Part shown: piece after piece, positions 1 through 28,483 of the stretch
Numbering within the stretch: position 1 is the first letter of the stretch
How the letters are laid out: every line of letters starts with the position of its first letter
Origin: Nanobdellota archaeon
Lineage (GTDB): Archaea; Aenigmatarchaeota; Aenigmatarchaeia; QMZP01
Assembly: GCA_043814765.1 (NCBI GenBank)
Contig: JBDRJQ010000028.1
Location: forward strand, 1 to 64,000
Length of the DNA: 64,000 bases
Direction of reading: 5' to 3'
The notes under the pieces: model-generated
Told to the model about the DNA's origin: nothing
The model's input: only the letters and a program-made list of their open reading frames with translations
Database searches by the model: none
Position numbers and translations under genes: made by a program

Positions 1-2651
1 GAGCCTATGAACCCCCCAAGATTGACATGAGGCCATTTCTCAGTGCCGTCAGGGTTGAGTGCGAAAAAGTTGCCTGAATAATTACCGAAATATAAAGTCC
101 CGTCCTCGGCAACTGCTGGCGAACAGAATATCGTATTGCCAGTCTGGTAGGTCCACTCTATGGCGTTGGTTTGCGGACCAGTGAAAAAGCTCTGGCCTGT
201 TCTCTGATGGTCATGCTGGAACATTGGCCAAATGCAAGCAACCTCAATACTAAACGGCTCGTCGCTGACATCATACACTGCAGTATCATCTGTCGAAGAA
301 ACCCGCACCCATACTGTGCTGTTAGGATAATCAGGGACTTCCCACAAACAGCTGCCGTCGTTGGTTTCGCCAGCGGCAATTGTGTGAATGTCTGATACGA
401 AACTGTCATTGGAATATTCAAGGAATACAGTTCCTGCAACATCATTCGAATCCCAGGTGATTTCTTCGTAGGTTTCTGTGACAAATGTTTCGCCGCCGTT
501 TGGTGATGTGACTAAAATCCATGGATCCAATGGTTCAGGGACAATACTGAAGTCATCATCCGAAGTGTCAGAGACAGCGGGGCTGTCAATAGATGTAATC
601 CGGATTCTGACAGTATCTGATACGTCGTCGGGAACTGTCCACATATGGCTTCCGTCGTTAGGAGTATCCGAAATTATAGTGATAATGTTAGAAATGAAAC
701 CATCTTTGGAATATTCAATAAGAACATTCCCAGTGACATATTCAGAATTCCACAGAATTGAATGCTCTGTGATGACTTGCAAAAATTCGCCGCCGTTTGG
801 TGATATAACTGCAATCCATGGGGGAGGCTCGTAGATGATGGTAAAATACGCTTCAGACTCGTCGTACGCATCCGGGTCCATGGTCGAGCTGACCCTGACC
901 TTGACTGTGTCTGATGGGTCCACAGGAATGTCCCAGAGAAAGCTGCCATCATTATCCTCATGGTCGGATATAGGATGAATATCAGCTGTAAAATCATCCT
1001 TTGAGTACTCAAGGAACACGGTTCCTGTTATATTTCCGGATTCCCAGAATATCTCCTCAATGGTCTCAGCTTCCCAGATTTCGCTGCCATTCGGCGAGAT
1101 GAGGTTTATCCACGGCGTTGGTGGGCCGAGGATTGTGAATGCGTTTGAAACGTCATTTACATTTGGATCATCAAACGAGCTTATTCTGATTCGCACATTT
1201 GATGACGGGTCGTCTGGAACAATCCAGATGTGAGAACCGTCGTTCGGTTCATTCGGGCTTATTGAATGAATGTCAGTGTTGAAATCATCCTTGGAATAAT
1301 CTATAAAGACATTTCCTGGCACGTTTGCTGATGTCCAGGTAATCTCCTGCTCGGCACCAGGCTGCAGCTGATACCAATAATTCGGAGATATGATTTCTAT
1401 GCTCGGGTTTGGATTGTAGTCCAAAACCGGCAGATTAAAAACCCTGAAGAACGCTGCTAAAGTGTCATTCTCAGCATCGTTATGTATGCCGGATGAGTGA
1501 GTATAAGTGTAATCCGGATTCTCAATAATGACCCAGAGCTCATTGCCTTCAAGTTTTGTTGGATCTGTGGGGATTTCAGCATGATAGCTGTAGACGTTGG
1601 GATAAGGATTGTCTGCAACTTCCATGTCTAAGTGATAAGGTGCTAAAAGGACATCGCTTTCTATAATGATGTCGTAATCTTCCATGACGCCCTGATTAGG
1701 CGTGGCAAACCAATCGAAAACGTCAATGTCAAGAATCAAATCACCGCCGTTCTCGTCTGAGTTTGCATAGTACATTGTGCTGCTGCTGGCATCCAGCGTT
1801 GCGCACTGCGCCTCATGACTATGCGCCGGATGGTTTTCCGGTTTCGGGCCGTTCCAAGAAGCTATGATTGCATAATTAAACACAATTCCCGGAATGTTCG
1901 GAAACCTGATTTTGTAATTTCTACTCAAATACGAGTAGTACAGAAATGTCCCGACATCAGGTTCTCCTGATGTTAAATAACTCATGAGGTCTTCATCAGT
2001 CTCAACAATTCCTTTTCCAAAATACTTGTAGGGGTTTATTGTTGAACTGCCGACAAAATTGTCTGGGCACGCAATCTTCCCTTCTGTATAGCCTGCAAGC
2101 CCGGGATTCATGAATTCATTCGGATTAAACCATCTTGTGTATCCGTCTGCATTGACAAGAACCTGGTCGATTCCAGCAACCGGAATCCTCGCATCCGGAC
2201 TGATATCATACTTTAAGTTTGCGTGCCCGTTGCCAATATAGACCCCGCGGACGTCATAGACGTCTGTTTCTGGATTGTTAATCGGATGCCTAATGCTCGC
2301 ATTAACATCCAGAATCGTTTCGCCTGGTATTGTAGTTGTGTCGATGTCGTTGAACGACAGAATCAGGCACTGGTGATTATGATTAAGCAGTCCAACAACA
2401 TTGTACGTCTCTGCCACGGTTCTATTCGGTTCCGCTTCAATTGTCTGGTTTTCAATGTCCACGGTAACAGTATAGAATCCCCACAGCTGAGTGGCTGTGA
2501 GATTTGCTTCGCGCTTTATGGCAAGCATATCTGTTGTCGAGTTATCGACAAATGATGGAACAGTTGGCGCAACTGATCCGCTTCCGCTTCCGCAGGAAGA
2601 GGCCAGCGGAAGAGCCAGAAGGAGAAATAACACTGCAAAGAATCGATTCAT
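1..2651 (-). CDS. Large bacterial-style lipoprotein, 3'-partial (>880 aa): lipobox signal peptide, N-terminal domain, 4 SPNGGE-type Ig-like repeats, start of a PQQ-like beta-propeller
   Basis: Absent from the ORF track, presumably because it runs off the window edge. ATG at 2651 after SD AAGGAGG; begins MNRFFAVLFLLLALPLASSC-GSGSGS. The same frame at the window edge reads WPMFQHDHQRTG...SPAVAEDGTLYFG...FALNPDGTEKW. Confidence 0.85.
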   Translation of the reverse strand, partial: MNRFFAVLFLLLALPLASSCGSGSGSVAPTVPSFVDNSTTDMLAIKREANLTATQLWGFYTVTVDIENQTIEAEPNRTVAETYNVVGLLNHNHQCLILSFNDIDTTTIPGETILDVNASIRHPINNPETDVYDVRGVYIGNGHANLKYDISPDARIPVAGIDQVLVNADGYTRWFNPNEFMNPGLAGYTEGKIACPDNFVGSSTINPYKYFGKGIVETDEDLMSYLTSGEPDVGTFLYYSYLSRNYKIRFPNIPGIVFNYAIIASWNGPKPENHPAHSHEAQCATLDASSSTMYYANSDENGGDLILDIDVFDWFATPNQGVMEDYDIIIESDVLLAPYHLDMEVADNPYPNVYSYHAEIPTDPTKLEGNELWVIIENPDYTYTHSSGIHNDAENDTLAAFFRVFNLPVLDYNPNPSIEIISPNYWYQLQPGAEQEITWTSANVPGNVFIDYSKDDFNTDIHSISPNEPNDGSHIWIVPDDPSSNVRIRISSFDDPNVNDVSNAFTILGPPTPWINLISPNGSEIWEAETIEEIFWESGNITGTVFLEYSKDDFTADIHPISDHEDNDGSFLWDIPVDPSDTVKVRVSSTMDPDAYDESEAYFTIIYEPPPWIAVISPNGGEFLQVITEHSILWNSEYVTGNVLIEYSKDGFISNIITIISDTPNDGSHMWTVPDDVSDTVRIRITSIDSPAVSDTSDDDFSIVPEPLDPWILVTSPNGGETFVTETYEEITWDSNDVAGTVFLEYSNDSFVSDIHTIAAGETNDGSCLWEVPDYPNSTVWVRVSSTDDTAVYDVSDEPFSIEVACIWPMFQHDHQRTGQSFFTGPQTNAIEWTYQTGNTIFCSPAVAEDGTLYFGNYSGNFFALNPDGTEKWPHVNLGGFIG
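480..1410 (-). repeat. Four ~100-aa (~300-bp) intragenic repeats
   Basis: Units begin PSIEIISPNYW, PWINLISPNGSE, PWIAVISPNGGE and PWILVTSPNGGE; each later has W.S...GNV..EYSKDDF-like and NDGS..W motifs. Confidence 0.8.
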
Positions 2652-2797
2652 GTTTAGCCTCCTTGGCTATAGTTTTTTGTAAGAAAAATACTGTATATCC
2701 ATTTGGATTTGTCACAAGGCAAGTTTCTTGCGTCGTGAATTTATAGTGAATGTGTAGAGCATAATAACGATTAATACAAGTATTGTTACTAAAGTGG

Positions 2798-2810
2798 TAT
2801 AAAAAGGTTT
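2798..2810 (-). promoter_or_regulatory. Archaeal BRE-TATA promoter for the lipoprotein gene
   Basis: AAACCTTTTTATA on the minus strand, the same pattern as AAACCTTT(T)AT at ~10771, ~13547 and ~62702. Confidence 0.55.
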
Positions 2811-2850
2811 CTCTTGCAGGCAGTTAATATCCCCAATAATTGACAGTGAT

Positions 2851-2887
2851 AAACAGAACGCACTGACAGAGTCGGTGCTTTTGGTTT
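2851..2887. terminator. GC-rich hairpin with T-tract, intrinsic-terminator-like
   Basis: GCACTGAC-AGA-GTCGGTGC followed by TTTT, just past the stop of the 2913..3374 gene. Confidence 0.5.
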
Positions 2888-2912
2888 ATGTCATAAAGAG
2901 ACATTAAAAGGC

Positions 2913-3374
2913 TTAATTGTTGATTTCTCTCAGTCTGTTAGCGAGAGCTTCGATATCGTCGACTGGCATGCAACAGTTTATGAGGTTTCGCCAGATGTCG
3001 GGATTGATTCCGAACTCTTTGGACATAAAATCCCACTTTAACCCCACAACCTTTTCGCTCATGTCAAATCCGTCTGCATCAAACGGAATTCTCCACGGAC
3101 ACGAAATTTTGACTTCTTTGAAAACTCCGTGCTCTGGATTAACTTCTTCCATTCGAGAAGCTCCTAGTGGGGTTGAATCATAGAACTGATTGCCTGTGAC
3201 TTTGAATGGACCCACTACAAGCCTCTGCATACCGATTCCTATAAAGAAAATCGGCTCGAGCCTTTCAACAATTGTCTCCTCGCCGTACAGCAGAAGTTTG
3301 TTGTGCCATTGGATTGGCCAGTTCTGGTTGAGAAAAAAAACGAATGGATTTCTTGTTGGTTTTTCGTCTGCCAC
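2913..3374 (-). CDS. Hypothetical protein, possibly EVE/PUA-like domain
   Basis: GTG start after SD GGAGGT; GPFKVTGNQFYDSTP...CPWRIPF resembles the EVE-domain G.F.V....Y.D...yP.R pattern. Confidence 0.5.
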   Translation of the reverse strand: MADEKPTRNPFVFFLNQNWPIQWHNKLLLYGEETIVERLEPIFFIGIGMQRLVVGPFKVTGNQFYDSTPLGASRMEEVNPEHGVFKEVKISCPWRIPFDADGFDMSEKVVGLKWDFMSKEFGINPDIWRNLINCCMPVDDIEALANRLREINN

Positions 3375-3402
3375 TTTTGAGTGACCTCCATGAAAATAGT
3401 AT

Positions 3403-3478
3403 TTTCCCTAAACATCCTCGTTTTGCCCTTCGGGTCATCGCATCGCATGTGTCTTGCGTCGCGGGATTGTTTAGGAAA
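3403..3478 (-). ncRNA. Putative structured 5' leader RNA (multibranch)
   Basis: Long closing stem TTTCCTAAACA-ATCC / GGA-TGTTTAGGGAAA encloses the hairpins CGCA/TGCG and CCC-GAA-GGG; lies between a TATA-like TTTTAAA (~3522-3528) and the SD. Confidence 0.4.
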
Positions 3479-3552
3479 TTTGTGAACATGACAATATTGT
3501 ACCAAATTCTTCCTTTGATGGTTTAAAAGCATTTCTTTTGCTGAAAGGATAG

Positions 3553-4443
3553 CTATTTAGTCATTGCTGTTCGAAGCTTTAACAGGGCTTTGTTCTTTAT
3601 CTGCCTTGTCCTCTCTTTTGTTATGTCATATGTTCTTCCAGTGTCTTCAAGAGTCATTGCATACTCTCTGTTTAAACCTGTTATTTTTTTTAAAATATCA
3701 GTTTCCCTTTCATCCAGTTCTTCTTCCATAAGCCTGAACAAATAGTTTCTCAAAGATGCTCTTTCTGCTAACACATCCGGCCCTTTAACATTAATATCTT
3801 CTAAAAGGTTTATCAATTCAGTATTTCCTTCTCCTGCTAAATCATTCAACGAAATAACTTCACCCATTACATAAACATCAGCAACCATGTCTGCTATATT
3901 TTCAGACAATCCTGTTTTATTTCTAAATGCATCTTTAGCTTCATCTTCTGTTGGCTCTCTGCCAAAATTGCTTTTGAATTCATTTATTGCCTTTTGATAG
4001 TTTCTTAATTTATAAGTCATGTATACTGGCTTTCTTATTATTTTTTCTGAATCTGCTATAGACTTTGTGAGCCTTTGCCTTATCCACCAAGCAGCATAAG
4101 TCAAAAATCTAAAGCCTGTTTCCGGATCATATTTTCTTGTTGCTTCAATAAGCCCATCATTTCCTTCTTGTACAATATCCATAAATGACAGGTGGGAAAT
4201 ATTATGATATTTCTTTGCTATTGACACGACAAATCTTAGATTAGAAGTTACAAGTTTTTCAATCGCTTCCAGCCTTTCTTCTTCAGTATAATTGCCATTA
4301 TCATCCTGTATGATTCTTCCATATATTATTTCTTCTATTTTACTGAGTAAAGGATATTGAGATATCTCAGTAAAGTATGCTTTAACATGATCATCAAGCC
4401 TTTCTTCTTCAGAGTAAAATTGATTCTCTTCAAGGGTTTTCAT
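3553..4443 (-). CDS. RNA polymerase sigma-70 factor, RpoD/SigA-like, lacking region 1.1 (296 aa)
   Basis: Region 1.2 AYFTEISQYPLLS; region 2 KLVTSNLRFVVSIAKKY, DIVQEGNDGL, YDPETGFRFLTYAAWWIRQ; region 3 GREPT, ISLN; region 4 MTLEDTG...TKERTRQIKNKALLKLR. Start taken as ATG 4443. Confidence 0.95.
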   Translation of the reverse strand: MKTLEENQFYSEEERLDDHVKAYFTEISQYPLLSKIEEIIYGRIIQDDNGNYTEEERLEAIEKLVTSNLRFVVSIAKKYHNISHLSFMDIVQEGNDGLIEATRKYDPETGFRFLTYAAWWIRQRLTKSIADSEKIIRKPVYMTYKLRNYQKAINEFKSNFGREPTEDEAKDAFRNKTGLSENIADMVADVYVMGEVISLNDLAGEGNTELINLLEDINVKGPDVLAERASLRNYLFRLMEEELDERETDILKKITGLNREYAMTLEDTGRTYDITKERTRQIKNKALLKLRTAMTK

Positions 4444-4501
4444 GATTAAAAGATGGTAAGAATGTATTAAACATTTAACTGAGCTCAAATAACTATATAA
4501 T

Positions 4502-4786
4502 ATGATAATTGACGCGGCTGTATGGGTATTTGTTGCCGGGTTTCTTGGCGGTGTGATACGCGGCTTGGTTGGCATTGCTAAAGAGATAAGATCGTCTCCG
4601 CGGAGCAAAAGAAACCTGCGTCCCGACTACATTCTCGTGACGATTCTTGCCGCAGGCGGCCTGGGGTTGCTGGTCGGCGTATTCATTACTGAAGACATCA
4701 GGTTTGCACTGCTGGCAGGCTATGCAGGCGCGGACTTCGTTGAGTCGCTGTTCAAGATAAAGATGAAAAAGCAGACATGGGGTTAA
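4502..4786 (+). CDS. Small membrane protein (about 3 TM)
   Basis: Gly-rich hydrophobic helices (GFLGGVIRGLVG; ALLAGYAGADFVE). Confidence 0.75.
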   Translation: MIIDAAVWVFVAGFLGGVIRGLVGIAKEIRSSPRSKRNLRPDYILVTILAAGGLGLLVGVFITEDIRFALLAGYAGADFVESLFKIKMKKQTWG

Positions 4787-5041
4787 ATGATTTTAGAGAT
4801 TTTAGCAACAATGTTTGGAATAATAAGTGGAATAGCAAATCTTCCACAGGCTTACAGAATATTCAAAAGAAAGAGCGCTAAGGATATTTCTATCTTAACA
4901 TATTCAATTTTAATTGTTGGAGCAATTATTTGGCTTCTGTATGGAATTGAGCTTGCGAACTTTCCTATAATAATAACCAACGCAATTGGTTCAATAAACA
5001 TAGGTTTAGTGATTGTTGGATGGTATTTCTATGGGCGTTAG
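4787..5041 (+). CDS. SemiSWEET/PQ-loop transporter
   Basis: 84 aa, 3 TM, LPQAYRIFKRKSAKDIS and WLLYG...PIIITN motifs. Confidence 0.9.
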   Translation: MILEILATMFGIISGIANLPQAYRIFKRKSAKDISILTYSILIVGAIIWLLYGIELANFPIIITNAIGSINIGLVIVGWYFYGR

Positions 5042-5546
5042 GTATCTGATTTCAGTTATTGTATTATTTTTAATCATTCCAGTCGTGTCTGCTGAGACCA
5101 ATGTTGTCCCGTATATAGAAGGCAATTGCATGGACTACAATGTTTCTGCAACAGCGCTTGCGGATGAAGGCAGGGTGTCCCAACTGGAAGAAGGCTGCTA
5201 CGACATAAAGGTTGACATAACAACCCCTAATGGCCGTGTTGGAGAGATATATGATCCAAAGGAAGGATGGAAATCATCTTACTATTATGTCAATGAAATA
5301 TGCATAAGCGCAGGAGACGAGATAACAGTGCAGACAAGGGCGTCTCAGGATCCTGTGCTCAATTTCAAGGTAACACTGAAATCAGGCTCGTCCCAGTGGG
5401 AGTCAAAATATCAGGAAGTGGTTCAGGATTGTCCTTCCGCATGGTTTGACGAAACTCCTATAGAATACTTCCTTCTGCCAGTTCTTTTATCTGCTGTAAT
5501 AATGTTTGCAGTGATTGTTTTGTATGTTAAGAAGTGGAAGAAGTAA
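5031..5546 (+). CDS. Secreted protein with C-terminal membrane anchor
   Basis: Signal peptide (...LIIPVVSA), C-terminal TM plus KKWKK; ATG at 5031. Confidence 0.75.
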   Translation: MGVRYLISVIVLFLIIPVVSAETNVVPYIEGNCMDYNVSATALADEGRVSQLEEGCYDIKVDITTPNGRVGEIYDPKEGWKSSYYYVNEICISAGDEITVQTRASQDPVLNFKVTLKSGSSQWESKYQEVVQDCPSAWFDETPIEYFLLPVLLSAVIMFAVIVLYVKKWKK

Positions 5547-5547
5547 A

Positions 5548-6063
5548 TTACGACAAAATCAGGATATTATTACCGTCATCATGCGTGTTGTGTATTCTTT
5601 CTATTGATTTTCTGTCGAATGATCTTAGCTGATCCTTTATGGTATCTGCATTCATTGAAAGGACTTTAATCACCTTCTCATCAATCTCTACAACAGGCAC
5701 TGTGTGAAAAACGATTCCGGAAGAGAAGGGCTTGTTGATGCCTATTGAAATCAGAACAGGCTTGCCTTTTTTCACTGCCTTTTCAATCTCGTCAATCTTT
5801 TCCTTTCCCTTTCCTCTAGGAAAGCTTAGTATGTTGAAGTTGACATGAGGATATTTTTCCTTTACCCTTTTTGCGACTTTTTCAAGATTGTTTGAGCCGT
5901 CGCCATTTTGCGGACTGAATCTTTCCTGAAAAGATTCTATTTCAGGAATCTCTACTCCCTTATACCTTAACATCCATTCTATACCAACTGGTATAGAACC
6001 CAAACTCTTGTCCCTCTGCATAATATTGACATTCTCATATCCTTCAAGTTTTATTTTAACCAC
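5548..6063 (-). CDS. Peptidase C39-like (papain-fold) protein with Ser at the catalytic Cys position
   Basis: Q....GSIPVGIEWMLRYKG, GKPVLISI and FHTVPVV match the C39-like layout. Confidence 0.55.
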   Translation of the reverse strand: MVKIKLEGYENVNIMQRDKSLGSIPVGIEWMLRYKGVEIPEIESFQERFSPQNGDGSNNLEKVAKRVKEKYPHVNFNILSFPRGKGKEKIDEIEKAVKKGKPVLISIGINKPFSSGIVFHTVPVVEIDEKVIKVLSMNADTIKDQLRSFDRKSIERIHNTHDDGNNILILS

Positions 6064-6194
6064 CTACTCAGAACAAATTCTATGTTATATTATTGTCTTA
6101 ACTCCTTAATATATCCCTATTATTAGAAAGAAGCTGTTCATAATATTCATAGCATCGATTAACATATATTAGGCAAATTTTCTAAATTTATAAT

Positions 6195-6866
6195 ATGCCT
6201 TCTCCAGGTAACAGTAAAAAAATAAAAAAGACAGCGAAATCTGTATTTGAAAAACACAAACATAAAATTGTTTTTTCAGCAAGTGCGGTTATTGTGATTG
6301 TTATTGTGGCTGCTATAGGATTCTTTGTTGGTGTGGGTTATCAAAGAGTTTTTATACCAGCAGAATGCAATTCTCCACTTGAAATAATTGGTAATGAATG
6401 CTGTCTTGATGAAGACAACACTGGTGTTTGTGACACGCATGAGGTTGAAGAAGAGCCTGAAGTAATAGCTCCGTATTGTGGTGATGGATCTTGTTTTGCA
6501 GAAACTGAAAATTGTGAAAACTGTGTAAAAGACTGTGGCACATGTTCCTTGGAAAAAATGACTAAGTTTAATGTAATAAACGTTTTTTGTAGTGCTACTT
6601 TGTCTAGGTTATTCTTTTCAATTAAAAACATACATGACGATACTCTCTTTATTAATGAGATTTGGATAAATGCTCCGAAAGGAAATGCAGATAATATTAT
6701 AGAAAAGATATGGAGAAACTATATTTCTTCTGATGGAGAGTTGGCTGATAGCTACAAAATAGATTGCGCTAATAGTGATTATTTTGAAATGCGTCTGAAA
6801 GGTTTAGACGAAAATAACAAACCATTTGATGAGTTTGGTCAATACAAAATAGAAGTAGTAGGATAG
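6195..6866 (+). CDS. Membrane-anchored Cys-rich surface protein
   Basis: Basic N-terminus, one TM, CNSP...ECCLDEDNTGVCD and YCGDGSC...ENCENCVKDCG.C motifs. Confidence 0.75.
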   Translation: MPSPGNSKKIKKTAKSVFEKHKHKIVFSASAVIVIVIVAAIGFFVGVGYQRVFIPAECNSPLEIIGNECCLDEDNTGVCDTHEVEEEPEVIAPYCGDGSCFAETENCENCVKDCGTCSLEKMTKFNVINVFCSATLSRLFFSIKNIHDDTLFINEIWINAPKGNADNIIEKIWRNYISSDGELADSYKIDCANSDYFEMRLKGLDENNKPFDEFGQYKIEVVG

Positions 6867-6895
6867 TCTTAAAAGATTTTGCAACAATTAGTTTT

Positions 6896-8365
6896 ATGGC
6901 CAGGATTCATGGAGATCATGTTGGAACAACATTTGATGATTTTCTTGTACTGCCAGGATTGCCTGGTGATGATTCACTAATACCTGACCATGTTACCTTA
7001 AAGTCAAGCATATCAGGAATAAAGCTTGAGATGCCTTTTTTCACTGCAGCAATGAGGTCTGTTACAGGCAAGGAGCTAGCCTTTAAAGCAGGCAAACTGG
7101 GAATGATGGCTGTTGCTCCCAGGGGGCTCAGCATAGAAAAGCAGGCAGAAATTGTTCGCTATGTTAAGGAAAGGGAAGTAAAGCCAGGCGAAATAGAATC
7201 GCTAACAAATCCAGCAATTGCTTATGACAATGCAAAGCTAGGAGATACCATTAAAACAGCAAAAGAGAGCGGGCACTCCAAAATACCAATCATAACAAAG
7301 AAATCAGATTTTATAGGAATGTTTGTTTACAATCCGTCTGAACATGACAGAATGAACATAGAGACTCCTATAACAAAGGTCATGCTGCCTTTCAAAGACG
7401 CAGAAGGAAATATTTTAACAGAGGTGTGCAAGGAAGGCATGAGCGATAATGAAATAAAAAACAAGATGAATGAGAAAAATTTCAGGTACTTGCCTATACT
7501 TGATGACATGGGAAGGCTGTCAAGATTGGTTTTTATACAAAAGGATGAAGCCTATAAAATAGGAGCTGCTATCGATACTCATCCTGGGTGGGAGAGCAGG
7601 GCTAGAACGCTAATTCTTGCAGGTGCAGACATGATATTCATAGATACATCTGACGGGCACAAAGCGTTTACAGTCAGTGTTGTCAAGAAATTCAAAGAGC
7701 TGTTTCCAAAGACTCCAATATGCGCAGGCAACATAGTTACTCCAGAAGCGTTTGAGTATTTGGCTGATGCTGGTGCAGACGCCATAAAGGTTGGAATGGG
7801 GCCAGGCTCTATTTGTACAACCAATGAGGTTTTGGGTATAGGCTCGCCTCCTTTCTGGGCGCTTGTTGAAGTGTGCAGCAAAAGAGATCAATACGCAAAT
7901 GAAAGGGGAAAATACATACCTGTTATAGTTGATGGTGGCATAGAGAGCACAAGTAACATGACTGTTGCATTGACGCATGCAGACGGCCTCATGGGCGGAA
8001 AGATATTCGGATGCTTTGATGAATCTGCTGGCGATAAAATAAAGAGAAACAACAAGATAGTTGGGGTCAGGCTTTACGGAGAGGCCTCGCAAGAGGCTTT
8101 TGAAACCACCGGTGACATGAAAAGATACTCTTTGCCAAACAGCGAAGAGAATATTACATCGTTTCAAGGAGTTAGCGGGATTGTGCCTTTTAGGGGCAGG
8201 TTCAAGCCAGGCGTTGAAATGTACATAAAAACTCTAAAAGAGGCTTTATTCCATACTGGTTCCAAGGACCTGAAGGAATACAGGGAAAAGGCAGTTCTGG
8301 TCAGAATGTCAGAGAGAGCAAAACAAACAGCTAAGCCTCATGGATTGGATGTTATTGGAGATTGA
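6896..8365 (+). CDS. guaB: IMP dehydrogenase with CBS domains
   Basis: TFDDFLVLPG, AGNIVT, catalytic KVGMGPGSICTT, PVIVDGGI, flap RY dyad (MKRYS). Confidence 0.9.
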   Translation: MARIHGDHVGTTFDDFLVLPGLPGDDSLIPDHVTLKSSISGIKLEMPFFTAAMRSVTGKELAFKAGKLGMMAVAPRGLSIEKQAEIVRYVKEREVKPGEIESLTNPAIAYDNAKLGDTIKTAKESGHSKIPIITKKSDFIGMFVYNPSEHDRMNIETPITKVMLPFKDAEGNILTEVCKEGMSDNEIKNKMNEKNFRYLPILDDMGRLSRLVFIQKDEAYKIGAAIDTHPGWESRARTLILAGADMIFIDTSDGHKAFTVSVVKKFKELFPKTPICAGNIVTPEAFEYLADAGADAIKVGMGPGSICTTNEVLGIGSPPFWALVEVCSKRDQYANERGKYIPVIVDGGIESTSNMTVALTHADGLMGGKIFGCFDESAGDKIKRNNKIVGVRLYGEASQEAFETTGDMKRYSLPNSEENITSFQGVSGIVPFRGRFKPGVEMYIKTLKEALFHTGSKDLKEYREKAVLVRMSERAKQTAKPHGLDVIGD

Positions 8366-8367
8366 TT

Positions 8368-9669
8368 ATGGACATTCTTGTTTATGACGGTTTCTGGGGG
8401 GACTGCGGAAAAGGAAAGATAGTAGACTTTCTAGCAGAAAAGAAAGCTAAAGAAGGAAATCTGGAAGCAGTGGTCCGTTTTGCTGGCGGCGGTAATGCCG
8501 GGCATACCGTAGTCCTGGAAAACAACGATGTTCTCAGATTGAATCTTATCCCTTCCGGCATAGCAATTCCTGATGTGTATAATGCTCTTTTGTCTAAAGT
8601 TTTAGTTAATCCGCTAAAGCTAATGGAAGAGATAAAAAGAATCGAAGAAGATTACGGAATTGAAATAACTCCTGAAAAGTTTGGAGTCAGTGGAAGATGC
8701 AAAGTAACCTTACCGTTTCACATAGATTTAGATGTGCTTAACAGCAAAATTAAGGGCAGAGATGTATCTACTAAAAGAGGAATAGCACCAACGCAGGCAG
8801 ATAACGTTAGTTACAACGGAATGACGATGGCAGAATTTGTTGATGAACTAACCTTTACAGAAGTTTTAGAAGAACAGTTTCATAGAATTGATGAGCTTTA
8901 CAAGCATTTTGATACTTCTGTTGAGCTTGATGTTGAATCATACAAAAATGAACTGGGTCCTGCTATGAATTTTCTAAGAAAATTTATTATCGATGAGGCA
9001 GAACTTGTTGAAAACAAAAAAGGCGATTGGATCTTTGAGGGTGCTCAAGGGACGCTGTTAAGTCCAACATATGGCAATTATCCTGATGTTACAGCAACTG
9101 AACCATATGAACCGCCAAGTTATTTTGAAGGCGAAAAATACATGGTATTAAAATCCTTTGTCTCAAGGGTTGGTGCAGCTCCAAGAGTTGGTGTTGTCCC
9201 AGAACATGTAGATAAAATTATTCGCGGCGAACCAGGATCAATTGGAGAGGAGATAGGCGCAACAACCGGTCGTAAAAGGGATCTAATGTGGTTTGATGCT
9301 ATTGCTGCCAAGCATTCTGCACTGTTAACAAATCCGGATATTTTGATACTAACAAAACTTGATATGTTAAGCGGTGTAAACGAATTGGAAATAACTACAG
9401 GATATGATACCGGTGACGGCATAATCAATCATGTTCCTCAAAACAGAAATGTGTATAAAACATGCGCTGAACATAATCCAGAAACTATGAAGCTTGTTGG
9501 ATGGTCTGAAGACATTGGTGGCATAAAGGAATGGGAATATCTGCCTGAAAACGCAAAGAATTATGTTGCAACAATAGAAAAATTGCTTGATCATAGAGTA
9601 GGATACGTTTCTGTTGGAACAGGAAGGCATGACATAATAGAAGTCCCTGAGTATAGATATGCTGCCTAA
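8368..9669 (+). CDS. purA: Adenylosuccinate synthetase (divergent)
   Basis: WGDCGKGKIVD, GGGNAGHT, LIPSG, FEGAQG, GATTGRKR, LTKLD, YVSVG. Confidence 0.92.
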   Translation: MDILVYDGFWGDCGKGKIVDFLAEKKAKEGNLEAVVRFAGGGNAGHTVVLENNDVLRLNLIPSGIAIPDVYNALLSKVLVNPLKLMEEIKRIEEDYGIEITPEKFGVSGRCKVTLPFHIDLDVLNSKIKGRDVSTKRGIAPTQADNVSYNGMTMAEFVDELTFTEVLEEQFHRIDELYKHFDTSVELDVESYKNELGPAMNFLRKFIIDEAELVENKKGDWIFEGAQGTLLSPTYGNYPDVTATEPYEPPSYFEGEKYMVLKSFVSRVGAAPRVGVVPEHVDKIIRGEPGSIGEEIGATTGRKRDLMWFDAIAAKHSALLTNPDILILTKLDMLSGVNELEITTGYDTGDGIINHVPQNRNVYKTCAEHNPETMKLVGWSEDIGGIKEWEYLPENAKNYVATIEKLLDHRVGYVSVGTGRHDIIEVPEYRYAA

Positions 9670-9760
9670 ACATAACCTTTAATAATCTCTACCTACTATT
9701 TTCTTTATTAAAAAACTCTTTAGAAAAAGGTTTTATCCCAAAACGCTATATAATCAATAT

Positions 9761-10711: not shown

Positions 10712-10823
10712 AATCTTACCTTGATGCCTATTTTTCTCAATTTTGGATTTATATATAAAGCTTTAAAGCAAAACCTTTTATTATAAACTGCAAAAACTGT
10801 AATAAACCGTAATTGGAGAAAAT

Positions 10824-13651: not shown

Positions 13652-13888
13652 ATGTTGATTAACGTCCTAAATCATGACATGGTTCCAGAGCACACAGTCA
13701 TGTCAAAACAAGAGCAAGAAGAGCTTCTCGAACGCCTTAATGTTACAAGGGAAAAACTACCTAAAATTTTGGATTCTGACACTGCTTTAATAGAGCTGAA
13801 ATTTAAAACAGATGATATCATAAAAATAAAAAGAAAATCAGTTGTTGCAGGTGAATCCATTTATTATAGGGTTGTTGTTAATAGATAG
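13652..13888 (+). CDS. rpoH: RNA polymerase subunit H (Rpo5)
   Basis: HDMVPEH, LPKI, IKIKRKS...YYRVV. Confidence 0.97.
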   Translation: MLINVLNHDMVPEHTVMSKQEQEELLERLNVTREKLPKILDSDTALIELKFKTDDIIKIKRKSVVAGESIYYRVVVNR

Positions 13889-13978
13889 TGGTTATAGTTT
13901 TGTTAACCGTTATCGAGTGGTATGCTCTTTTTTGCTGGCCGTTAATCAAAATGGTTTGAGCAACGATTAGAGGGGCGT

Positions 13979-15439
13979 ATGTCATATTTACCTATAATTA
14001 AGGGCTATGAGAAGCAAGTAGGATGGGCTGATTTTCAGATTAATTCTTTCAATAATTTTGTTAACGGCGGAATGCAGAAGATTATTGATGAAATCGATGT
14101 TGTTAACCTAACACCAGAGCTTGGCGACCTTAAGCTTAAATTCGGTAAAGTTGATGTTGGAAAAACAGTAATAAAGGAAGCTGATGGCTCTACAAGACAA
14201 ATATTCCCAAATGAAGTGAGGATAAGAAATCTGACATATTCTGCACCTATATGGGTGACAATAACCCCTATTATAAACGGCATACAAGAAAAATCAGAAA
14301 AGGTGCATATAGGCGACTTGCCTGTTATGGTAAAATCATGCTTATGCTCTACTTTTGAACAGGACAGAGAAAGGCTGATAGAAATGAATGAGGATCCTGA
14401 CGATCCTGGAGGCTATTTCATTGTTAATGGAACAGAAAGAGTTTTGGTCCTTATAGAAGAGATAGCATCCAACAAGCCAATTTTTGAGAAATCCAAAGAC
14501 GACATATCAGTAAGAATCAATTCTGAAAAATCAGGTTTCAAGCAAAGACATATAATTGAAAGGAAACCTGAAGGTGATGTTGTTATTTCCTTTGCCAATA
14601 TAAGAAAACTTTCTGTATTTGTGTTGCTAAAGGCTCTTGGAATGGAAACAGACAAAGAAATATGTGATAACGTATCAAGTGATCCGAGAATACTAAATGA
14701 AATTTATACCAATCTTTTTGAAACAGAAGCCAACAACAAAGAAGAAGCTATAGAATACATAGGCAAAAAGCTCAGAGTGACAGAAGATTACAGAGAGGAA
14801 AGAGTAAAGCAAATTCTTGACAGGTATCTTCTTCCTCACATAGGACAAGAAACAGAGAGAAGATATGAAAAAGCACAATTCTTAACAAAAATAATAAAGA
14901 AAACTGTTGCACTATCGCTTGGCATGATAACAAGCGATGATATCGATCATTATTCCAACAAAAGGCTATTGATGTCATCAGAATTGCTAGGACAGCTCTT
15001 CAGATCCATTCTTCTTGGAAGATGGGGACTGCTTGCAAAAATGACATACAATTATCAGAAACTGGTTAAGAGAGGCAAACAGCCCTCAATACAGGGAATA
15101 ATTGAGGCAAATGCCGTAACAAAACAAGTTCTTTCATCTGTTGCAACTGGAAACTGGATAGGTGGCAGAACCGGTGTTTCACAGCGATTGGACAGAAGTT
15201 CTTACATAAAAACAGTCTCTCATTTAAGATCAATAATATCCCCGCTCACATCAACACAGGAGCACTTCAATGCAAGGCAGATTCATCCAACAGAATGGGG
15301 GCGTTTGTGCCCTGCAGAAACTCCTGAAGGGTCATCAATAGGTTTGAGAAAACACCTTGCTCTTCTAACGGAAATAACAATAGGAGAGGATGATATTGAA
15401 AACGAAAAAATAGTTAAATTGATATCTTCATTGGAATAG
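13979..15439 (+). CDS. rpoB2: RNA polymerase subunit B'' (Rpo2N)
   Basis: RNLTYSAP, DPGGYFIVNGTERV, GRLCPAETPEG. Confidence 0.97.
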   Translation: MSYLPIIKGYEKQVGWADFQINSFNNFVNGGMQKIIDEIDVVNLTPELGDLKLKFGKVDVGKTVIKEADGSTRQIFPNEVRIRNLTYSAPIWVTITPIINGIQEKSEKVHIGDLPVMVKSCLCSTFEQDRERLIEMNEDPDDPGGYFIVNGTERVLVLIEEIASNKPIFEKSKDDISVRINSEKSGFKQRHIIERKPEGDVVISFANIRKLSVFVLLKALGMETDKEICDNVSSDPRILNEIYTNLFETEANNKEEAIEYIGKKLRVTEDYREERVKQILDRYLLPHIGQETERRYEKAQFLTKIIKKTVALSLGMITSDDIDHYSNKRLLMSSELLGQLFRSILLGRWGLLAKMTYNYQKLVKRGKQPSIQGIIEANAVTKQVLSSVATGNWIGGRTGVSQRLDRSSYIKTVSHLRSIISPLTSTQEHFNARQIHPTEWGRLCPAETPEGSSIGLRKHLALLTEITIGEDDIENEKIVKLISSLE

Positions 15440-15451
15440 GAAAAATAGAAT

Positions 15452-17386
15452 ATGGCTAAGACTAAAAAACCAGTAGTGAAGAAAAATATTAAGCCAAAGG
15501 CTATAAAAAAATCCGTAAAAACCAAAACACATGAGAAACCCAAAACAATAACAAAGTCTACAAAAACGGTTTCTAAGCAAGTTGCTAAAAAACCAGAAAC
15601 AGCAGACATTTATTTCAACGGAAAATACATGACTGTTACCAGCAACCCAGACAAATTTGTTAATGAGCTCAGAAAAAAAAGAAGAATGAATCTTATATCG
15701 CATAAAATGAATGTTGGCTATTACAAACAGTTTGGAGAGATTAGAATATCAACAGAATCTGGAAGAGCCAGACGTCCTCTTATTATAGTTGAAAATGGCA
15801 AGGCAAGACTTACACAGGAGCATGTAAAACAAATTGTTGAAAACAAAATAGAATGGAAAGATCTTGTTAAAAAAGCTATTATAGAGTACCTTGATGCTGA
15901 TGAAGAAGAAAACGCATATGTTGCAATTATACCCGAGGATATTACAGCAGATCATACTCATGTTGAAATTAACCCAATAGTAATGCTTGGCATTTCATCT
16001 ACATTTATTCCATACCCTGAATACAACAGAGGAGACAGAGTCAATTATGGCGTAAAAATGATAGGTCAGGCTATAGGGTTTATGGCCAAGAATTTCCTTG
16101 CCAGAATGGATACAAAGTTCAATGTTCTTTCTTATCCGCAGTCGCCTTTAATGGACACAGAAACAAGCGACGTCTTAAACAATTATCCTGGCGGACAAAA
16201 CATTGTTGTTGCCATAATGTGTCATGATGGTTTCAATCTAAATGATGCTATTGTTTTAAACAGGTCTTCTGTTGAAAGAGGGCTTTTCAGATCATTTTAT
16301 TTCAGAACGTATGAGACAATCAAAAAGAGATATTGGGGCGGACAGGAAGATGAAATAATGATTCCAGATCCTGGAATTAAAGGTCATAGAGGCGAAGAAT
16401 TTTATGCTGATCTTTCAGAAGATGGAATAGTAAATCTGGAAACAAAAGTAGAATCTGATTCTGTGCTGATTGGCAAGGTGTCTCCTTTACGTTTCCTTTC
16501 GGATAAAGGATTCACAGCAGACATAGAAAACAAGAGAGAAACTTCTGTAACAGTTAGATACGGAGAAAGGGGAATAACAGATAATGTTTTGATAACAGAA
16601 ACTCCTGAAGGCAGCAGATTAATAAAAGTAAGAATAAGAGATCAGAGAATACCAGAGCTTGGAGACAAGTTTGCTTCACGCCACGGACAGAAAGGCGTTG
16701 TCGGTCTTTTGGTTCCTCATGAAGACATGCCGTTCACAGAGAACGGTGTAGTTCCTGATATTGTTTTCAATCCTCACGCAATTCCTTCCAGGATGACAAT
16801 AGGACAATTGCTAGAACTCCTTGGAGGAAAGGCTTCATCTTTATCTGGAAAGAAAACTGGAGCAACAGCCTTTAATCATATAAAAGAAGGAGAACTGCGA
16901 AACATGATGAATAAGCTCGGATTCAGAGACGACGGTAAAGAAGTTTTGTACGATGGAAAAACCGGAAAGATGTACAATATTCTCATATTCACTGGCATAT
17001 CATATTACATGAAACTTGACCATATGGTAGCTAACAAAATACACGCAAGATCAAGAGGTCCTGTAACTCTGCTAACAAAACAGCCAACCGAAGGAAGGGC
17101 AAAGAGAGGAGGGCTAAGAGTTGGAGAAATGGAACAGCAATGTTTGCTTGGTCATGGAGCAGCCCTAACCCTAAAGGAAAGATTCGATTCTGATAGCAGT
17201 GCATTCCCAATCTGTAAAAAATGCGGACTGATTGCAACTCATGATGTTTTGAGAGGAAAGGTTTACTGCGCATCATGCAAGGGATCTGAAGTTACTTGGA
17301 TAACCACTTCTTATGCTTTCAAGCTGACTCTTGATGAGTTCAAGGCAATGGGTATATACCCTAAATTAATAGTGAGTGAGGATTAA
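15452..17386 (+). CDS. rpoB1: RNA polymerase subunit B' (Rpo2C) with Lys-rich N-terminal extension
   Basis: GDKFASRHGQKG, PHAIPSRMTIG, QPTEGRAKRGGLRVGEME, C-terminal Zn ribbon. Confidence 0.97.
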   Translation: MAKTKKPVVKKNIKPKAIKKSVKTKTHEKPKTITKSTKTVSKQVAKKPETADIYFNGKYMTVTSNPDKFVNELRKKRRMNLISHKMNVGYYKQFGEIRISTESGRARRPLIIVENGKARLTQEHVKQIVENKIEWKDLVKKAIIEYLDADEEENAYVAIIPEDITADHTHVEINPIVMLGISSTFIPYPEYNRGDRVNYGVKMIGQAIGFMAKNFLARMDTKFNVLSYPQSPLMDTETSDVLNNYPGGQNIVVAIMCHDGFNLNDAIVLNRSSVERGLFRSFYFRTYETIKKRYWGGQEDEIMIPDPGIKGHRGEEFYADLSEDGIVNLETKVESDSVLIGKVSPLRFLSDKGFTADIENKRETSVTVRYGERGITDNVLITETPEGSRLIKVRIRDQRIPELGDKFASRHGQKGVVGLLVPHEDMPFTENGVVPDIVFNPHAIPSRMTIGQLLELLGGKASSLSGKKTGATAFNHIKEGELRNMMNKLGFRDDGKEVLYDGKTGKMYNILIFTGISYYMKLDHMVANKIHARSRGPVTLLTKQPTEGRAKRGGLRVGEMEQQCLLGHGAALTLKERFDSDSSAFPICKKCGLIATHDVLRGKVYCASCKGSEVTWITTSYAFKLTLDEFKAMGIYPKLIVSED

Positions 17387-19876
17387 ATGCCATATATTAA
17401 AGAAATAGATTTTAGCATATTGTCGCCTGAAATGATTAGGCTAATGGCTAGAGTTAGAATTGTAAGCTCTGATCTTTACGATGCTGATGGTTATCCCGTA
17501 GAAGGAGGAGTAATGGATCCAAGACTGGGTGTCATAGATCCTGGACTTCACTGCAGAACATGCAATGGTGGCATAGGAGAATGTCCTGGTCATTTTGGAT
17601 ACCTGGAATTAGCAAAGCCTGTTATACATGTGCTCTACACAAAATTTGTATACCATCTTCTGAAGCTAACGTGCAGAAAGTGCAACAGAATTATGATAAA
17701 AGATAAGGCCACTGAAAAATCGCACTTAATCCAGCCGCTAAAATGCCCGCATTGCAATGCCAATCAAAAGAAAGTGAGTTTCATAAAACCGTACACGTAT
17801 TACGAAGACAAAACAGAATTGTCACCTACTGATGTTAGAGAGCGTTTCGAAAAAATACCAAATAATGATCTTAAGAAACTTGGTATACTGGGAGGAAGAC
17901 CAGAATGGCTTATAGTAACTTTATTCCCAATACCTCCAGTAACAATGAGGCCTTCTATAACATTGGAAGGCGGTGAAAGATCAGAAGATGATCTTACGCA
18001 TAAATTGGTTGATATTGTTAGAATAAACCAGAGCCTGAAAGAAAATATAGACATAGGGGCTCCAGACTTTATTTTGAACGATTTAGCAGAACTTGTACAG
18101 TACCACATATCAACTTACTTTGATAACGAACTTACAGGTGCCCCATTAGCCAGGCATAGATCTGGAAGAGCTTTGAAGGGACTTGTTCAAAGACTAAAGG
18201 CAAAAGAGGGCAGAATAAGAGGAAATCTTTTAGGAAAAAGAGTTAACTTTTCTGCAAGGACTGTTATTTCTCCTGATCCAAAAATTTCCATAAATGAAGT
18301 TGGTGTACCTGAAATAATTGCAAAAGAATTGACTTTGCCAGAATATGTTTCGCTTGGAAACATAAAAGACATTAGAAATCTCATAAAAGAAGGAAAGGTT
18401 AATTATGTCGAAAGGCCTGATAAGAGAAGATTGAAAGTAACAGATACTAATAAAGATGACCTTGTAAAAAACATTGATGTTGGCTGGATTGCTGAAAGAA
18501 GAATACAGGACGGAGACATATCACTTTTCAACAGGCAGCCAAGTCTGCATAGAATGTCTATAATGGCGCATAAAATAAAAATAATGCCTTACAGGACATT
18601 CAGATTAAACCCAAGCGTTTGCCCACCTTATAATGCTGATTTTGATGGGGATGAAATGAATCTTCATATCCCGCAGAACGAAGAAGCAAAAACAGAAGCA
18701 GAGTTCTTAATGCAGGTGCATAAAAACATAAACTCTCCTCGTTTTGGCGGACCGATAATAGGTATGGATCTTGACCAGATATCAGGAATGTACTTGCTGA
18801 CTAGTAAAGGAACTGAACTGGACAGAGAATCATCAGCACAGCTTTTATCAAGTGCAGGAATTGATATTGAATTACCAAACAATGAAAAATTCACAGGAAA
18901 GGATATTTTCACGCAACTTTTACCAAAAGGACTGAACATAGAATTCAGGGCCAGCTGCTGCAAACACTGCGATCACTGTTTAAAAAGCAACTGTGAAAAT
19001 GATGCATGGGTTGAAATCAAAGATGGCGTCTTGAAAAAAGGAGCGATTGATTCAGCTGGTGTTGGTGCAATGAAAGGCAAGATACTGGCCAAATTAAACA
19101 AAATATATTCCTCAGAAGATATAAGAAATTTCATTGACAACGCAGGAAGATTGGGTGTTGCCTTCCTGATGGTAAGAGGATTCTCTCTGGGAATATCAGA
19201 TCTTGATGTTTCAAAAGAAACTACTAACAAAATCAGAAAAGAAATAATGCAAACAGAAATTGAAGCCAACGAGCTTATTAATAGTTATAAGAGAAAAGAG
19301 CTGCAAGCTCTTCCTGGATTAACACTAAAACAATCATTAGAGATGCAGATACTTAACAAGCTATCCACAGGCGTTAGCAATGCCGGTGATATAATAGCTA
19401 AAAATATAAAGAAAAGCGACATTCTTAACATGGCAATTTCTGGCGCAAAAGGATCATTCATTAACACAACACAGATGGCTGCTGTTGTCGGTCAAGAAAC
19501 AATATTAGGCAAGAGGATAAAACGCGGATACTTTGGTCGAACGCTTTCACATTTCAAAAAGGGTGACATATCACCAAAATCACAAGGATTTGTTTCAAAC
19601 GGATTCAAAAACGGCTTAGAACCAATTGAACTTTTTTGGAATATAATGAACGGCAGGGAAGGTCTGATGGATAAGTCTTTGAGAACAAGAAAATCTGGTT
19701 ACATGCAAAGAAGATTAATTAATGCTCTTCAGGATCTTAAAGTATCACCTGATCACACCATTAAAAACTCTGTGGGTGAAATCATACAATTTGTTGCTGG
19801 TGAAGACGGACTGGATCCATCAAAATCTGATTGGGGCAAATTTGATTGGAAAGAAGGAATAAGAGGAAGAATATGA
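17387..19876 (+). CDS. rpoA1: RNA polymerase subunit A' (Rpo1N)
   Basis: CPGHFG, catalytic [19 protein letters not shown]. Confidence 0.98.
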
Positions 19877-21042
19877 AGACACTACCTCCATTGATAAGAG
19901 ATGAAGTAGAGGAATATATAAAAGAGAAGAAATTCACTCCTCAGCAAAAAGAGAAGCTAATAAAAATAGTCAAAGAACTTTATACAAAAGCAAGATATGA
20001 TTCTCAGGAAGCAGTTGGTATAGTCGCTGCACAATCACTTTCAGAACCTGCCACACAGATGACTATGCGTACATACCACTTCGCAGGCACTGCTGGCATA
20101 CAGGTAACTCTTGGTCTTCCAAGGATACTTGAAGTGTTTGATGCCAGAAAGGAACCAAGAACACCTACTATGATGGTTTATCTGGATAAGGAAAATGGCG
20201 AATTGGATAGTGTAAGAAAAATCGCTGAGAAGATTAAGGAAATAAAGTTAAGAGATATTATTATTTCAACTATTATGGATCTAACAGCTTCTGGAATACT
20301 ATGCAAGCTTGATGTTGATAAAATAAAGAAATTGGAAATAGAGATAGAAAAGCTTCCAAAATTAATCAAAATCAGAAACGTTGACATTAAACTTAAAGAA
20401 GACACTTTATATATTTCACCTAAAAAGAAAGAGATGAAAGGTCTTCACAAACTGAAATACGCCCTTTTAGAGAGCCATGTAAAGGGCATAAAAGGCATAT
20501 CCCAGGTCGTTGTAACAAAGGACAAGGGAGAGTGGGTTATCAACACAATGGGTTCAAGCTTAAAGAAAGTGTTTGACATAAACGGTGTTGATGCTAATCG
20601 CACAATAACAAACGATCTTTTTGAAATTTATCACGTTTTAGGTGTAGAAGCAGCCAGAAACGCAATAGTAAAGGAAGCAAAATACATAATGGATGAGCAG
20701 GGACTTAATGTTGATATAAGATACATATTGCTTTTGGCAGATACGATGACTAAAGAAGGAGATATCAGAGCAATAGGACGTTACGGAATTAGTGGGCAAA
20801 AAGCATCTGTTCTTGTAAGAGCATCTTTCGAGGAGACCAAGAAACACCTAATAAACGCATCTATACATGGTGAAAAGGACATGCTTACCGGTACAATAGA
20901 GAATATTATGATGAACCAGGTAGCGCCTATAGGTACAGGTTCATTTGAACTTCTGGGCAAAATACCTGATATTATGAAGAAAACAGAAAAAACAGCTCCA
21001 AAAAAGAAGCCAGCAGCAAAAAAAACTGCTAAGAAGAAATAA
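19873..21042 (+). CDS. rpoA2: RNA polymerase subunit A'' (Rpo1C) with Lys/Ala-rich C-tail
   Basis: [40 protein letters not shown] overlap with the rpoA1 stop. Confidence 0.97.
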
Positions 21043-28482: not shown

Positions 28483-28483
28483 T

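Follow-up and report, generated by a model that had tools for sequence, protein, structure and literature searches.

The role of bacterial sigma factors in cells whose sole RNA polymerase (RNAP) is archaeal is a question raised in print in 2021; it was reportedly raised in 2013 as well, the year in which Rinke et al. are said to have noted sigma factors in archaea in Nature. The closest described genes are those of Castelle et al. 2021 (Front Microbiol; PMC8204110), whose passages on the subject describe sigma-70 genes (fam00359) as "particularly prevalent in Woesearchaeota," exclude mis-binning for that set, report that no anti-sigma factors were found, and call the mechanism unclear. A second set, in the part of a Nat Commun 2025 article (PMC12647753) that concerns such genes, consists of rpoS-like genes on DPANN viruses or prophages. 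Sigma-70 genes in DPANN archaea are already a published phenomenon, to which the gene described here adds a highly divergent further member; an earlier note on this DNA had treated such reports as sporadic, which understates the prevalence given for Woesearchaeota. The stretch of DNA analyzed here (the window) comprises 64,000 nucleotides of a contig from a Nanobdellota archaeon.

Domain architecture and predicted fold

The window gene is a bacterial-derived, primary-like sigma-70 homolog, of group 1/2 type without region 1.1. Its frame runs on the minus strand from an ATG at 4443 to a stop codon at 3553 to 3555 (Table 1). An alternative longer frame with a TTG start extends up to 4608 and overlaps, in antisense, the divergent gene at 4502 to 4786. 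The 296-residue form is an entry in a public protein collection, where it lies on a 98,054-base contig.

Pfam cut-offs were exceeded for region 1.2 (PF00140, 27.2 bits versus 22), region 2 (PF04542, residues 64 to 131, 61.6 bits versus 24), and region 4 (PF04545, residues 242 to 291, 39.4 bits versus 24.1). Region 3 scored 14.4 bits versus a cut-off of 25.3 (PF04539) and was crossed without a break by the alignments of NCBIfam RpoD models. The earlier note had held regions 1.2, 2, 3, and 4 all to be intact: Pfam bears this out for 1.2, 2, and 4, and for region 3 it stands in the predicted fold and fails at the Pfam cut-off. Two motifs quoted in the same note, FLTYAAWWIRQ and ERTRQI, are both in the translation, and its description of a short form lacking region 1.1 agrees with Pfam, since PF03979 had no match in the protein and only 17 residues precede region 1.2. 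Region 1.1 is not universal among primary sigmas.

At the level of families, the protein passes the superfamily model TIGR02937 (86.1 bits versus a cut-off of 42.9). NCBIfam models of RpoD, SigA, and RpoS align over residues 10 to 295 at 160 to 200 bits, all under their equivalog cut-offs, the best being TIGR02997 (202.7 versus 384.5), RpoD_Cterm (186.4 versus 354), and RpoS (178.4 versus 378.7). An AlphaFold2 model based on a 52-row alignment had a mean pLDDT of 87.7 and contained three sigma-3 helices at residues 140 to 193, an extended 3.2 linker, and sigma-4. The top PDB matches of this model were SigA and RpoS chains in holoenzymes (Foldseek E about 1e-15), and the closest solved relative by sequence was SigA chain 7ckq_F (E 4e-41).

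Table 1. Features of the sigma locus and the nearby RNAP operon, in window positions
Feature	Position	Strand	Basis
Sigma-70 family gene P0001, 296 aa plus stop	3553..4443	-	ORF, translation, Pfam, NCBIfam, fold
Region 1.2, residues 18-47	4303..4392	-	PF00140 (Sigma70_r1_2), E 3.9e-06
Region 2, residues 59-135: core-binding helix 2.2 and melting/-10 reading motif FLTYAAWWIRQRLTK	4039..4269	-	PF04542 (Sigma70_r2), E 6.3e-17; residue table; alignment with SigA chain 7ckq_F
Region 3.0-3.1, residues 136-193, sequence-divergent	3865..4038	-	PF04539 (Sigma70_r3), E 0.042; three modelled helices, 140-193
Region 3.2 linker, residues 194-221	3781..3864	-	Extended low-pLDDT segment; 21% mean identity among DPANN copies
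Region 4, residues 222-296, helix-turn-helix recognition helix TKERTRQIKNKAL	3556..3780	-	PF04545 (Sigma70_r4), E 4.2e-10; residue table
TTTAATA, TATA-box-like, from -28 relative to the ATG	4465..4471	-	Sequence
Three small membrane-protein genes: 94 aa; 84-aa PQ-loop/SWEET-like; 177 aa	4502..5546	+	Pfam PQ-loop, tblastn
Archaeal RNAP operon: rpoH-like (78 aa), Rpo2N, Rpo2C, Rpo1N, Rpo1C	13652..21042	+	Pfam, ORF list

Archaeal setting and residency of the gene

The host assembly is of the metagenome-assembled type, with 859 kb in 39 contigs, 88% completeness, and 1.2% estimated contamination; this genome size, and the 0.5 to 2 Mb of relatives, fit DPANN. The sigma gene sits well inside a 98-kb contig of uniform composition with archaeal genes on either side, and archaeal genes occur throughout the window, as expected from the earlier note's placement of the gene in an archaeal chromosome. 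Besides the RNAP operon, the window encodes L6, L32e, eIF1A, Rpo7, S24e, a pelota/eRF1-like protein, ABCE1, and a diphthine-synthase-like methylase. The distance to the operon, put at 9 kb in that note, measures 9.2 to 9.5 kb depending on whether it is taken to the rpoH-like ORF at 13652 or to Rpo2N at 13979. Across the whole genome there is a single match to Rpb1_2 and a single match to Rpb2_6, both in this archaeal operon; a genome-wide search of the 88% complete assembly found no bacterial RNAP core and no alpha-CTD match. TBP and TFB are both encoded, as is a second sigma-family gene, ECF-like and 200 residues long, on contig C6.

Composition, promoter, and gene order place the gene among those of its host. 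GC is 33.2% and GC3 25.3%, versus 37.4 ± 3.4 and 33.3 ± 6.4 for 767 crudely called host genes, so that both values are within about 1.25 standard deviations of the host means and the gene is AT rich like its host. TTTAATA lies 21 nucleotides ahead of the ATG, in a 58-bp divergent intergenic region common with the gene at 4502 to 4786. TATA-like hexamers in 753 upstream regions of this genome peak at -30 to -27, with 37 to 58 per position versus 4 to 28 elsewhere, as is characteristic of leaderless promoters in archaea, and the sigma gene's element, noticed already at its correct distance in the earlier note, occupies this host-typical position.

Gene order was compared with the one other genome of the same genus included here (G001). 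The three small membrane-protein genes (4502 to 4786, 4787 to 5041, and 5013 to 5546) have orthologs there with 84%, 79%, and 58% identity by tblastn, and a sigma gene lies divergent to them in the same relative order and orientation as in the window. In G001, the sigma gene is separated from the flanking orthologs by roughly 2 kb of additional DNA that contains a cold-shock-domain gene. The ORF downstream of sigma is not common to the two genomes (BLASTP E 0.018) and gave no lead in an Atlas search (best score, 0.87). The window sigma looks to have resided in the DPANN lineage for long enough to acquire the composition and the leaderless TATA promoter type of its host, because its GC is host-like, its TATA element is at the modal position, a same-genus homolog is syntenic, and the two copies are sisters in a tree (below).

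Divergence, distribution, and retained residues

The sigma proteins of the window and of G001 share 37% identity. Eleven further ORFs common to the two are 41 to 87% identical, and Rpo1N, over its first 420 residues, is 84% identical. The G001 gene has a frameshift inside the recognition helix of region 4.2, the conserved helix resuming in another frame, which is either an assembly error or true decay. Because the nearest homolog is merely 37% identical, synonymous sites are saturated. No relative with more than 49% identity was present among 1.84 billion cluster representatives (73,645 matches at E <= 0.001), and a word-indexed search of a public protein collection found no relative above 40%.

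Phylogenetic analysis used 18 DPANN copies and 31 named bacterial primary sigmas, the latter chosen from the best 80 of at least 600 genome-contig matches; these best 80 were all bacterial, from many phyla, at 33 to 40% identity. End branches measured 1.24 to 5.29 for the 17 DPANN copies listed, versus 0.03 to 1.53 for the bacterial rows (28 of 31 under 1). The window sigma's own branch, 1.86, is about four times the median end branch, 0.46. It forms a sister pair with the G001 copy (SH-aLRT 95), both being long-branched, and has no supported bacterial sister in this tree. The five nearest rows belong to Atribacterota, Bacillota (two), Armatimonadota, and Saccharimonadota; none is from Bacteroidota, against the Bacteroidota-type resemblance that had been suggested. 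A single origin of the 18 DPANN copies had an AU p value of 0.772, and the constrained tree was 18.3 lnL units better than the free search, so the AU test permits one DPANN origin without demonstrating a clade, with long branches in play. By these sequence comparisons, the window sigma evolves fast.

Using the window protein as the query, a match was found in 21 of 61 relatives, the window's genome counted in, which is not the pattern of the singleton transfer weighed in the earlier note. Pfam region 2 matched 60 of the 371 genomes sampled from the phylum. Such matches were concentrated in the window's order (families f1, 19 of 46; f4, 4 of 5; f6, 6 of 14) and in two further families of the class (f27, 11 of 44; f28, 6 of 6), and were scarce elsewhere (e.g., f21, 3 of 70; f22, 0 of 19), with no region 2 match in four archaeal control genomes. 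Several relatives carry tandem sigma clusters, such as three genes within 7 kb in G012 and three in a row in G015, and some encode long fused forms of 514 to 800 residues. Neighbors of the relatives' sigma genes are common archaeal genes of the housekeeping type, namely S8, L7Ae, RNase P p30, Rpo11, eIF2-beta, L35Ae, S13, and tRNA synthetases. No recurring partner or anti-sigma gene was found in 27 relative loci (132 ORFs).

Retention of key residues was scored over the 18 DPANN copies, in window numbering, at positions with little or no variation among the 31 bacterial rows. The window protein carries the bacterial consensus at every scored position in regions 2 and 4.2, with lysine for arginine at K276. 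Four positions of helix 2.2, which by correspondence with Escherichia coli sigma-70 we take to be contacts with the beta-prime coiled-coil, have the consensus residue in 17 (D89), 12 (Q92), 15 (E93), and 13 (N95) of the 18 copies. The aromatic residues F113 (17 of 18), Y116 (18 of 18), W119 (14 of 18), and W120 (17 of 18), together with Q123 (14 of 18) and T126, presumably form the -10 melting pocket (compare Q437 and T440 of E. coli sigma-70); T126 is present in the window protein and in merely 7 of the 18 copies. Positions 276 to 281, presumably the -35 reading residues of region 4.2 by correspondence with E. coli sigma-70, retain the consensus in 15 (K or R at 276), 16 (E277), 13 (R278), 16 (R280), and 15 (Q281) copies. 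At two positions after region 2.4, which we assume to make extended -10 contacts, bacteria have H (31 of 31) and E or D (30 of 31), and the window protein has Y at both.

Overall identity between the window sigma and other DPANN copies is 25 to 37%. Mean pairwise identity among DPANN copies is 0.49 in region 2 and 0.39 in region 4.2, versus 0.73 to 0.83 and 0.73 in bacteria, and falls to about 0.2 in regions 1.2, 3, and 3.2, the least conserved; the length of the 3.2 linker is kept. DPANN identity is below bacterial identity in each region, and the ranking of regions is identical, with 2 and 4.2 on top.

Candidate roles and comparison with known systems

The reading we tentatively prefer, with a probability of roughly 45%, is that the window sigma is a dispensable, fast-evolving accessory DNA-binding regulator that stands alone or associates loosely with RNAP. 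The retained sigma-2 head, with its aromatic pocket for the -10 element and single-stranded DNA, would bind DNA, the helix-turn-helix of sigma-4 would contribute binding alongside it, and the targets would be a few AT-rich promoter-like sites. DNA binding, a small number of targets, and action without a bacterial core are what we infer for this protein. It probably has a function, because the frame is intact, the fold is confident, the promoter is of the host type, and the reading residues are retained; it is probably accessory, because it diverges fast, is patchily distributed, occurs elsewhere as paralog clusters and fusions, has a possibly broken sister, lacks a conserved partner, and belongs to a genome in which no cognate core was found. 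Several points tell against this reading. Bipartite recognition is not assured where no core sets the spacing of sigma-2 and sigma-4. The core-binding residues of helix 2.2 are kept, for which a pure stand-alone DNA binder has no obvious need and which fits docking on RNAP at least as well. Slow decay, too, would fit the frameshifted sister copy and the long branches.

Promoter scans bear on how broad a role the protein could have. Sites resembling TTGACA-N16-18-TATAAT numbered 10 across the genome, a count that ranks 58 of 180 against permuted versions of the -35 hexamer (mean, 8.1; standard deviation, 4.2), and a consensus scan of window positions 1 to 20000 gave 61 sites versus 58.8 ± 7.2 in shuffled sequence; both scans assume the canonical sigma-70 consensus, to which a small or divergent regulon would be invisible. 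The protein is probably not a general initiation factor with canonical specificity, given the presence of TBP, TFB, and a single archaeal RNAP, the failure to find a bacterial core, and the lack of enrichment of sigma-70-type promoters.

A putative docking of the window sigma on the archaeal RNAP, with sigma-2 on the clamp coiled-coil of Rpo1N, the homolog of the bacterial beta-prime clamp helices, seems unlikely, though it comes first among the alternatives. At a few promoters, a docked sigma might assist melting or selection, or compete with TFB, TFE, or Spt4/5. In its favor, D89, Q92, E93, and N95 are all in the window protein and kept in 12 to 17 of 18 DPANN copies, and it is favored as well by melting aromatics kept in 14 to 18 of the 18, by the constant length of the 3.2 linker, and by the archaeal enzyme being the sole RNAP found in the genome. 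We know of no precedent for a sigma docked on an archaeal RNAP. The Rpo1N coiled-coil is near-invariant across 28 relatives, sigma-bearing and sigma-lacking alike, and thus gives no sign of sigma-linked adaptation; the unenriched promoters and the apparent dispensability of the gene also count against docking. A complex prediction for Rpo1N residues 1 to 330 with sigma residues 15 to 140 scored 0.01 (mark, 0.32; no controls) and weighs neither way.

The failure of two models (PF02002 and TIGR00373) to detect TFE in this genome, with all archaeal controls positive, speaks in favor of docking. PF02002 matched in 6 of 21 sigma-bearing genomes versus 19 of 40 others, and TIGR00373 in 4 of 21 versus 6 of 40, none over the cut-off. 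Weak or absent TFE matches are an order-wide trait without a link to sigma, which counts against that reading, and substitution of TFE by sigma was rejected on the same ground. More specific, and more doubtful than either docking in general or the decay considered next, is the idea that a captured sigma was rewired to the archaeal RNAP clamp and opens or selects a few promoters together with TBP and TFB, TFE possibly being weak or missing. If true, a clamp-docking sigma would be a hybrid bacterial/archaeal initiation mechanism.

The gene could instead be what is left of an old transfer from bacteria, slowly decaying or near-neutral and without a function today, which we consider somewhat less probable than docking. 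Very long branches, the patchy distribution, the frameshift in the same-genus copy, erosion of region 3 below its Pfam cut-off, and tyrosine at both positions where bacteria have an invariant histidine and a near-invariant acidic residue all suit such a history. Against it, 296 codons remain in an intact frame with a confident fold, no scored key residue in regions 2 and 4.2 has been lost despite the low overall identity, regions rank in conservation as they do in bacteria, and the promoter is host-typical. Neutral decay is disfavored because an old neutral gene would not keep its frame, residues, regional ranking, and promoter.

Action on a foreign bacterial-type RNAP, in a bacterial partner or host cell, a mobile element, or a virus, is improbable. 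Archaea of this kind are generally regarded as living with archaeal hosts, and the acidic, hydrophilic N terminus has neither a signal peptide nor a membrane segment in its sequence. No secretion or viral genes adjoin the sigma gene: a PHROGs scan of six proteins matched sigma alone, and with PADLOC the one match was to the sigma part of MzaA, the six scanned window neighbors giving none. Relatives of sigma on viral contigs are merely 32 to 39% identical among the best 80 of at least 584. What speaks for a foreign polymerase is that the complete bacterial set of residues for core binding and promoter reading has been retained, and that rpoS-like genes are placed on DPANN viruses or prophages in the relevant part of PMC12647753. 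By the PADLOC, PHROGs, and viral-contig scans, the gene is probably not part of a recognizable defense system or provirus either.

That a bacterial fragment was mis-assembled or mis-binned into an archaeal genome, for which one could cite the assembly type, the 39 contigs, and the estimated contamination, is scarcely credible, given the gene's position inside a uniform 98-kb contig with archaeal genes on both sides, an independent same-genus assembly with the same junction to the flanking genes (misassembly having been the earlier note's other reservation), relatives' sigma genes that adjoin archaeal ribosomal, RNase P, Rpo11, and eIF2-beta genes, and the exclusion of mis-binning by Castelle et al. 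for their own set in the passages of PMC8204110 on these genes.

The window offers a good test object rather than a discovery, and the biological question is not answered by it. As a test object the sigma is clean, being 296 residues long, unfused, and full-length, with the key reading residues in regions 2 and 4.2 all present, on a well-assembled contig near the RNAP genes that are its candidate partners. If the archaeal RNAP were bound by sigma, one of the sharpest molecular boundaries between the prokaryotic domains would be blurred; if the protein is a stand-alone DNA binder, it would join the bacterial regulators that archaeal transcription has taken up, a common occurrence.

Compared with bacterial group 1/2 sigmas (SigA/RpoD and RpoS; 7ckq_F, 7l7b_F, and 5ipl_F), the window protein has regions 1.2 to 4 in the same order, 36 to 40% identity to SigA (E 4e-41), an equal fold, and equal melting and -10/-35 reading residues. 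It differs in scoring below all RpoD and RpoS equivalog cut-offs, in lacking region 1.1, in its longer branch, in the Y/Y that replaces the H/acidic pair, in its archaeal promoter, and in a genome where no bacterial core was found. The likeness to MzaA (NF041931/PDLC02203) is limited to an aligned sigma part (184.7 bits with NCBIfam, 124.2 bits with PADLOC). Unlike MzaA, whose models span 683 to 726 positions, the window protein matches only the C-terminal sigma part (positions 429 to 657 of 683), scores far under the cut-off of 800, has no N-terminal MzaA part, and has no Mza partner among the six scanned neighbors.

Like the rpoS-like genes of DPANN viruses, as far as the part of PMC12647753 that describes them goes, the window gene is of the sigma-70 family and DPANN associated; unlike them, it has nothing viral recognized nearby and occupies a syntenic chromosomal site in two genomes. 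The nearest likeness is to the DPANN sigma-70 genes in the passages of Castelle et al. (PMC8204110) that treat them: a sigma-70-class gene on a DPANN contig with archaeal markers and, as with the absence of anti-sigma factors given there, no conserved partner near the window sigma or its relatives. TBP and TFB are likewise encoded in the window's genome. In contrast to that set, identity to this copy does not exceed 49% among 1.84 billion cluster representatives. New here are the syntenic same-genus copy, the contrast in rate to Rpo1N, the retention seen residue by residue, and the promoter scans that gave no enrichment.

Sigma-family genes in the window's genome and its same-genus relative

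Besides the 296-aa sigma-70 family protein of the window (P0001), the same genome carries a second sigma-family gene, of ECF type, on another contig (see the table). It is flanked by a small ORF of unknown function and a gene for an Lhr-like helicase C-terminal region, and no anti-sigma gene was recognised beside it.

The sigma homolog of the same-genus genome (G001) undergoes a frame change within the recognition helix of region 4.2 (about 2270 to 2350 of its locus, L004, on contig G001:C98), after which the conserved helix carries on in a different frame; the copy is either decaying or affected by a mistake in the assembly. Directly upstream of this homolog lies a bacterial-type cold-shock-domain gene, situated in about 2 kb absent from the window, and a phage-integrase-family gene occurs 5 kb away. 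In the window itself, a gene with a "putative phage metallopeptidase" domain is followed by a cluster encoding a VWA-domain protein and a T2SSE/PilB-type ATPase, which may represent a pilus or secretion module.

Features in the window, its genome and related genomes
Feature	Location	Coordinates	Strand	Details
Phage metallopeptidase-domain gene (putative)	Window	24167-24607		
VWA-T2SSE/PilB-type cluster	Window	25606-31933		VWA-domain protein (958 aa), two unknown genes, ATPase
ECF-type sigma-family gene	Window's genome, C6 (L002)	1387-1989	+	200 aa; Sigma70_r2 + r4_2
Cold-shock-domain gene	G001:C98 (L015)	13459-13731		Immediately upstream of sigma
Phage-integrase-family gene	G001:C98 (L015)	8496-9110		5 kb away
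Sigma cluster	G012:C20 (L016)	6220-12991		3 genes inside 7 kb (381, 761 and 408 aa)
Sigma cluster	G015:C76 (L017)	3-2366		3 tandem genes
"DPANN" sigma	G256:C16 (L019)	1024-2037		Region 1.1

TFE-alpha and the Rpo1N clamp

Neither PF02002 nor TIGR00373 detected TFE-alpha in the window's genome, while all four archaeal controls were matched. Across the order (this genome and 60 relatives), weak TIGR00373 matches were found in only 10 of 61 genomes, the best at 9.7e-10, and TFE in this lineage is either very divergent or missing. In the clamp coiled-coil of Rpo1N (…NDLWELVQYH…), residue 234 (window 18086-18088) is W in 25 of 28 relatives, whereas the window's genome and one further relative have A and the same-genus genome has S; the surrounding sequence is otherwise nearly invariant.

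Sigma paralogs and atypical records

Clusters of sigma paralogs occur in relatives such as G012 and G015. Long sigma forms of relatives (514 to 800 aa) carry N- or C-terminal extensions lacking annotation, and some contain a second region-4-like repeat.

In the sigma tree, two contig records (L112 and L091) are misplaced relative to their titles: one titled Gammaproteobacteria clusters with Falkowbacteria (support 100) and one titled Muribaculaceae with Melainabacteria (support 99), titles that probably reflect mis-binned metagenome-assembled genome contigs. The sigma of relative G256, on a contig whose sequence was covered no further than about 2.2 kb, has region 1.1 and strong scores for regions 1.2, 2 and 3. 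It looks like an ordinary bacterial RpoD, and its presence may be due to contamination of the bin or to very recent transfer.
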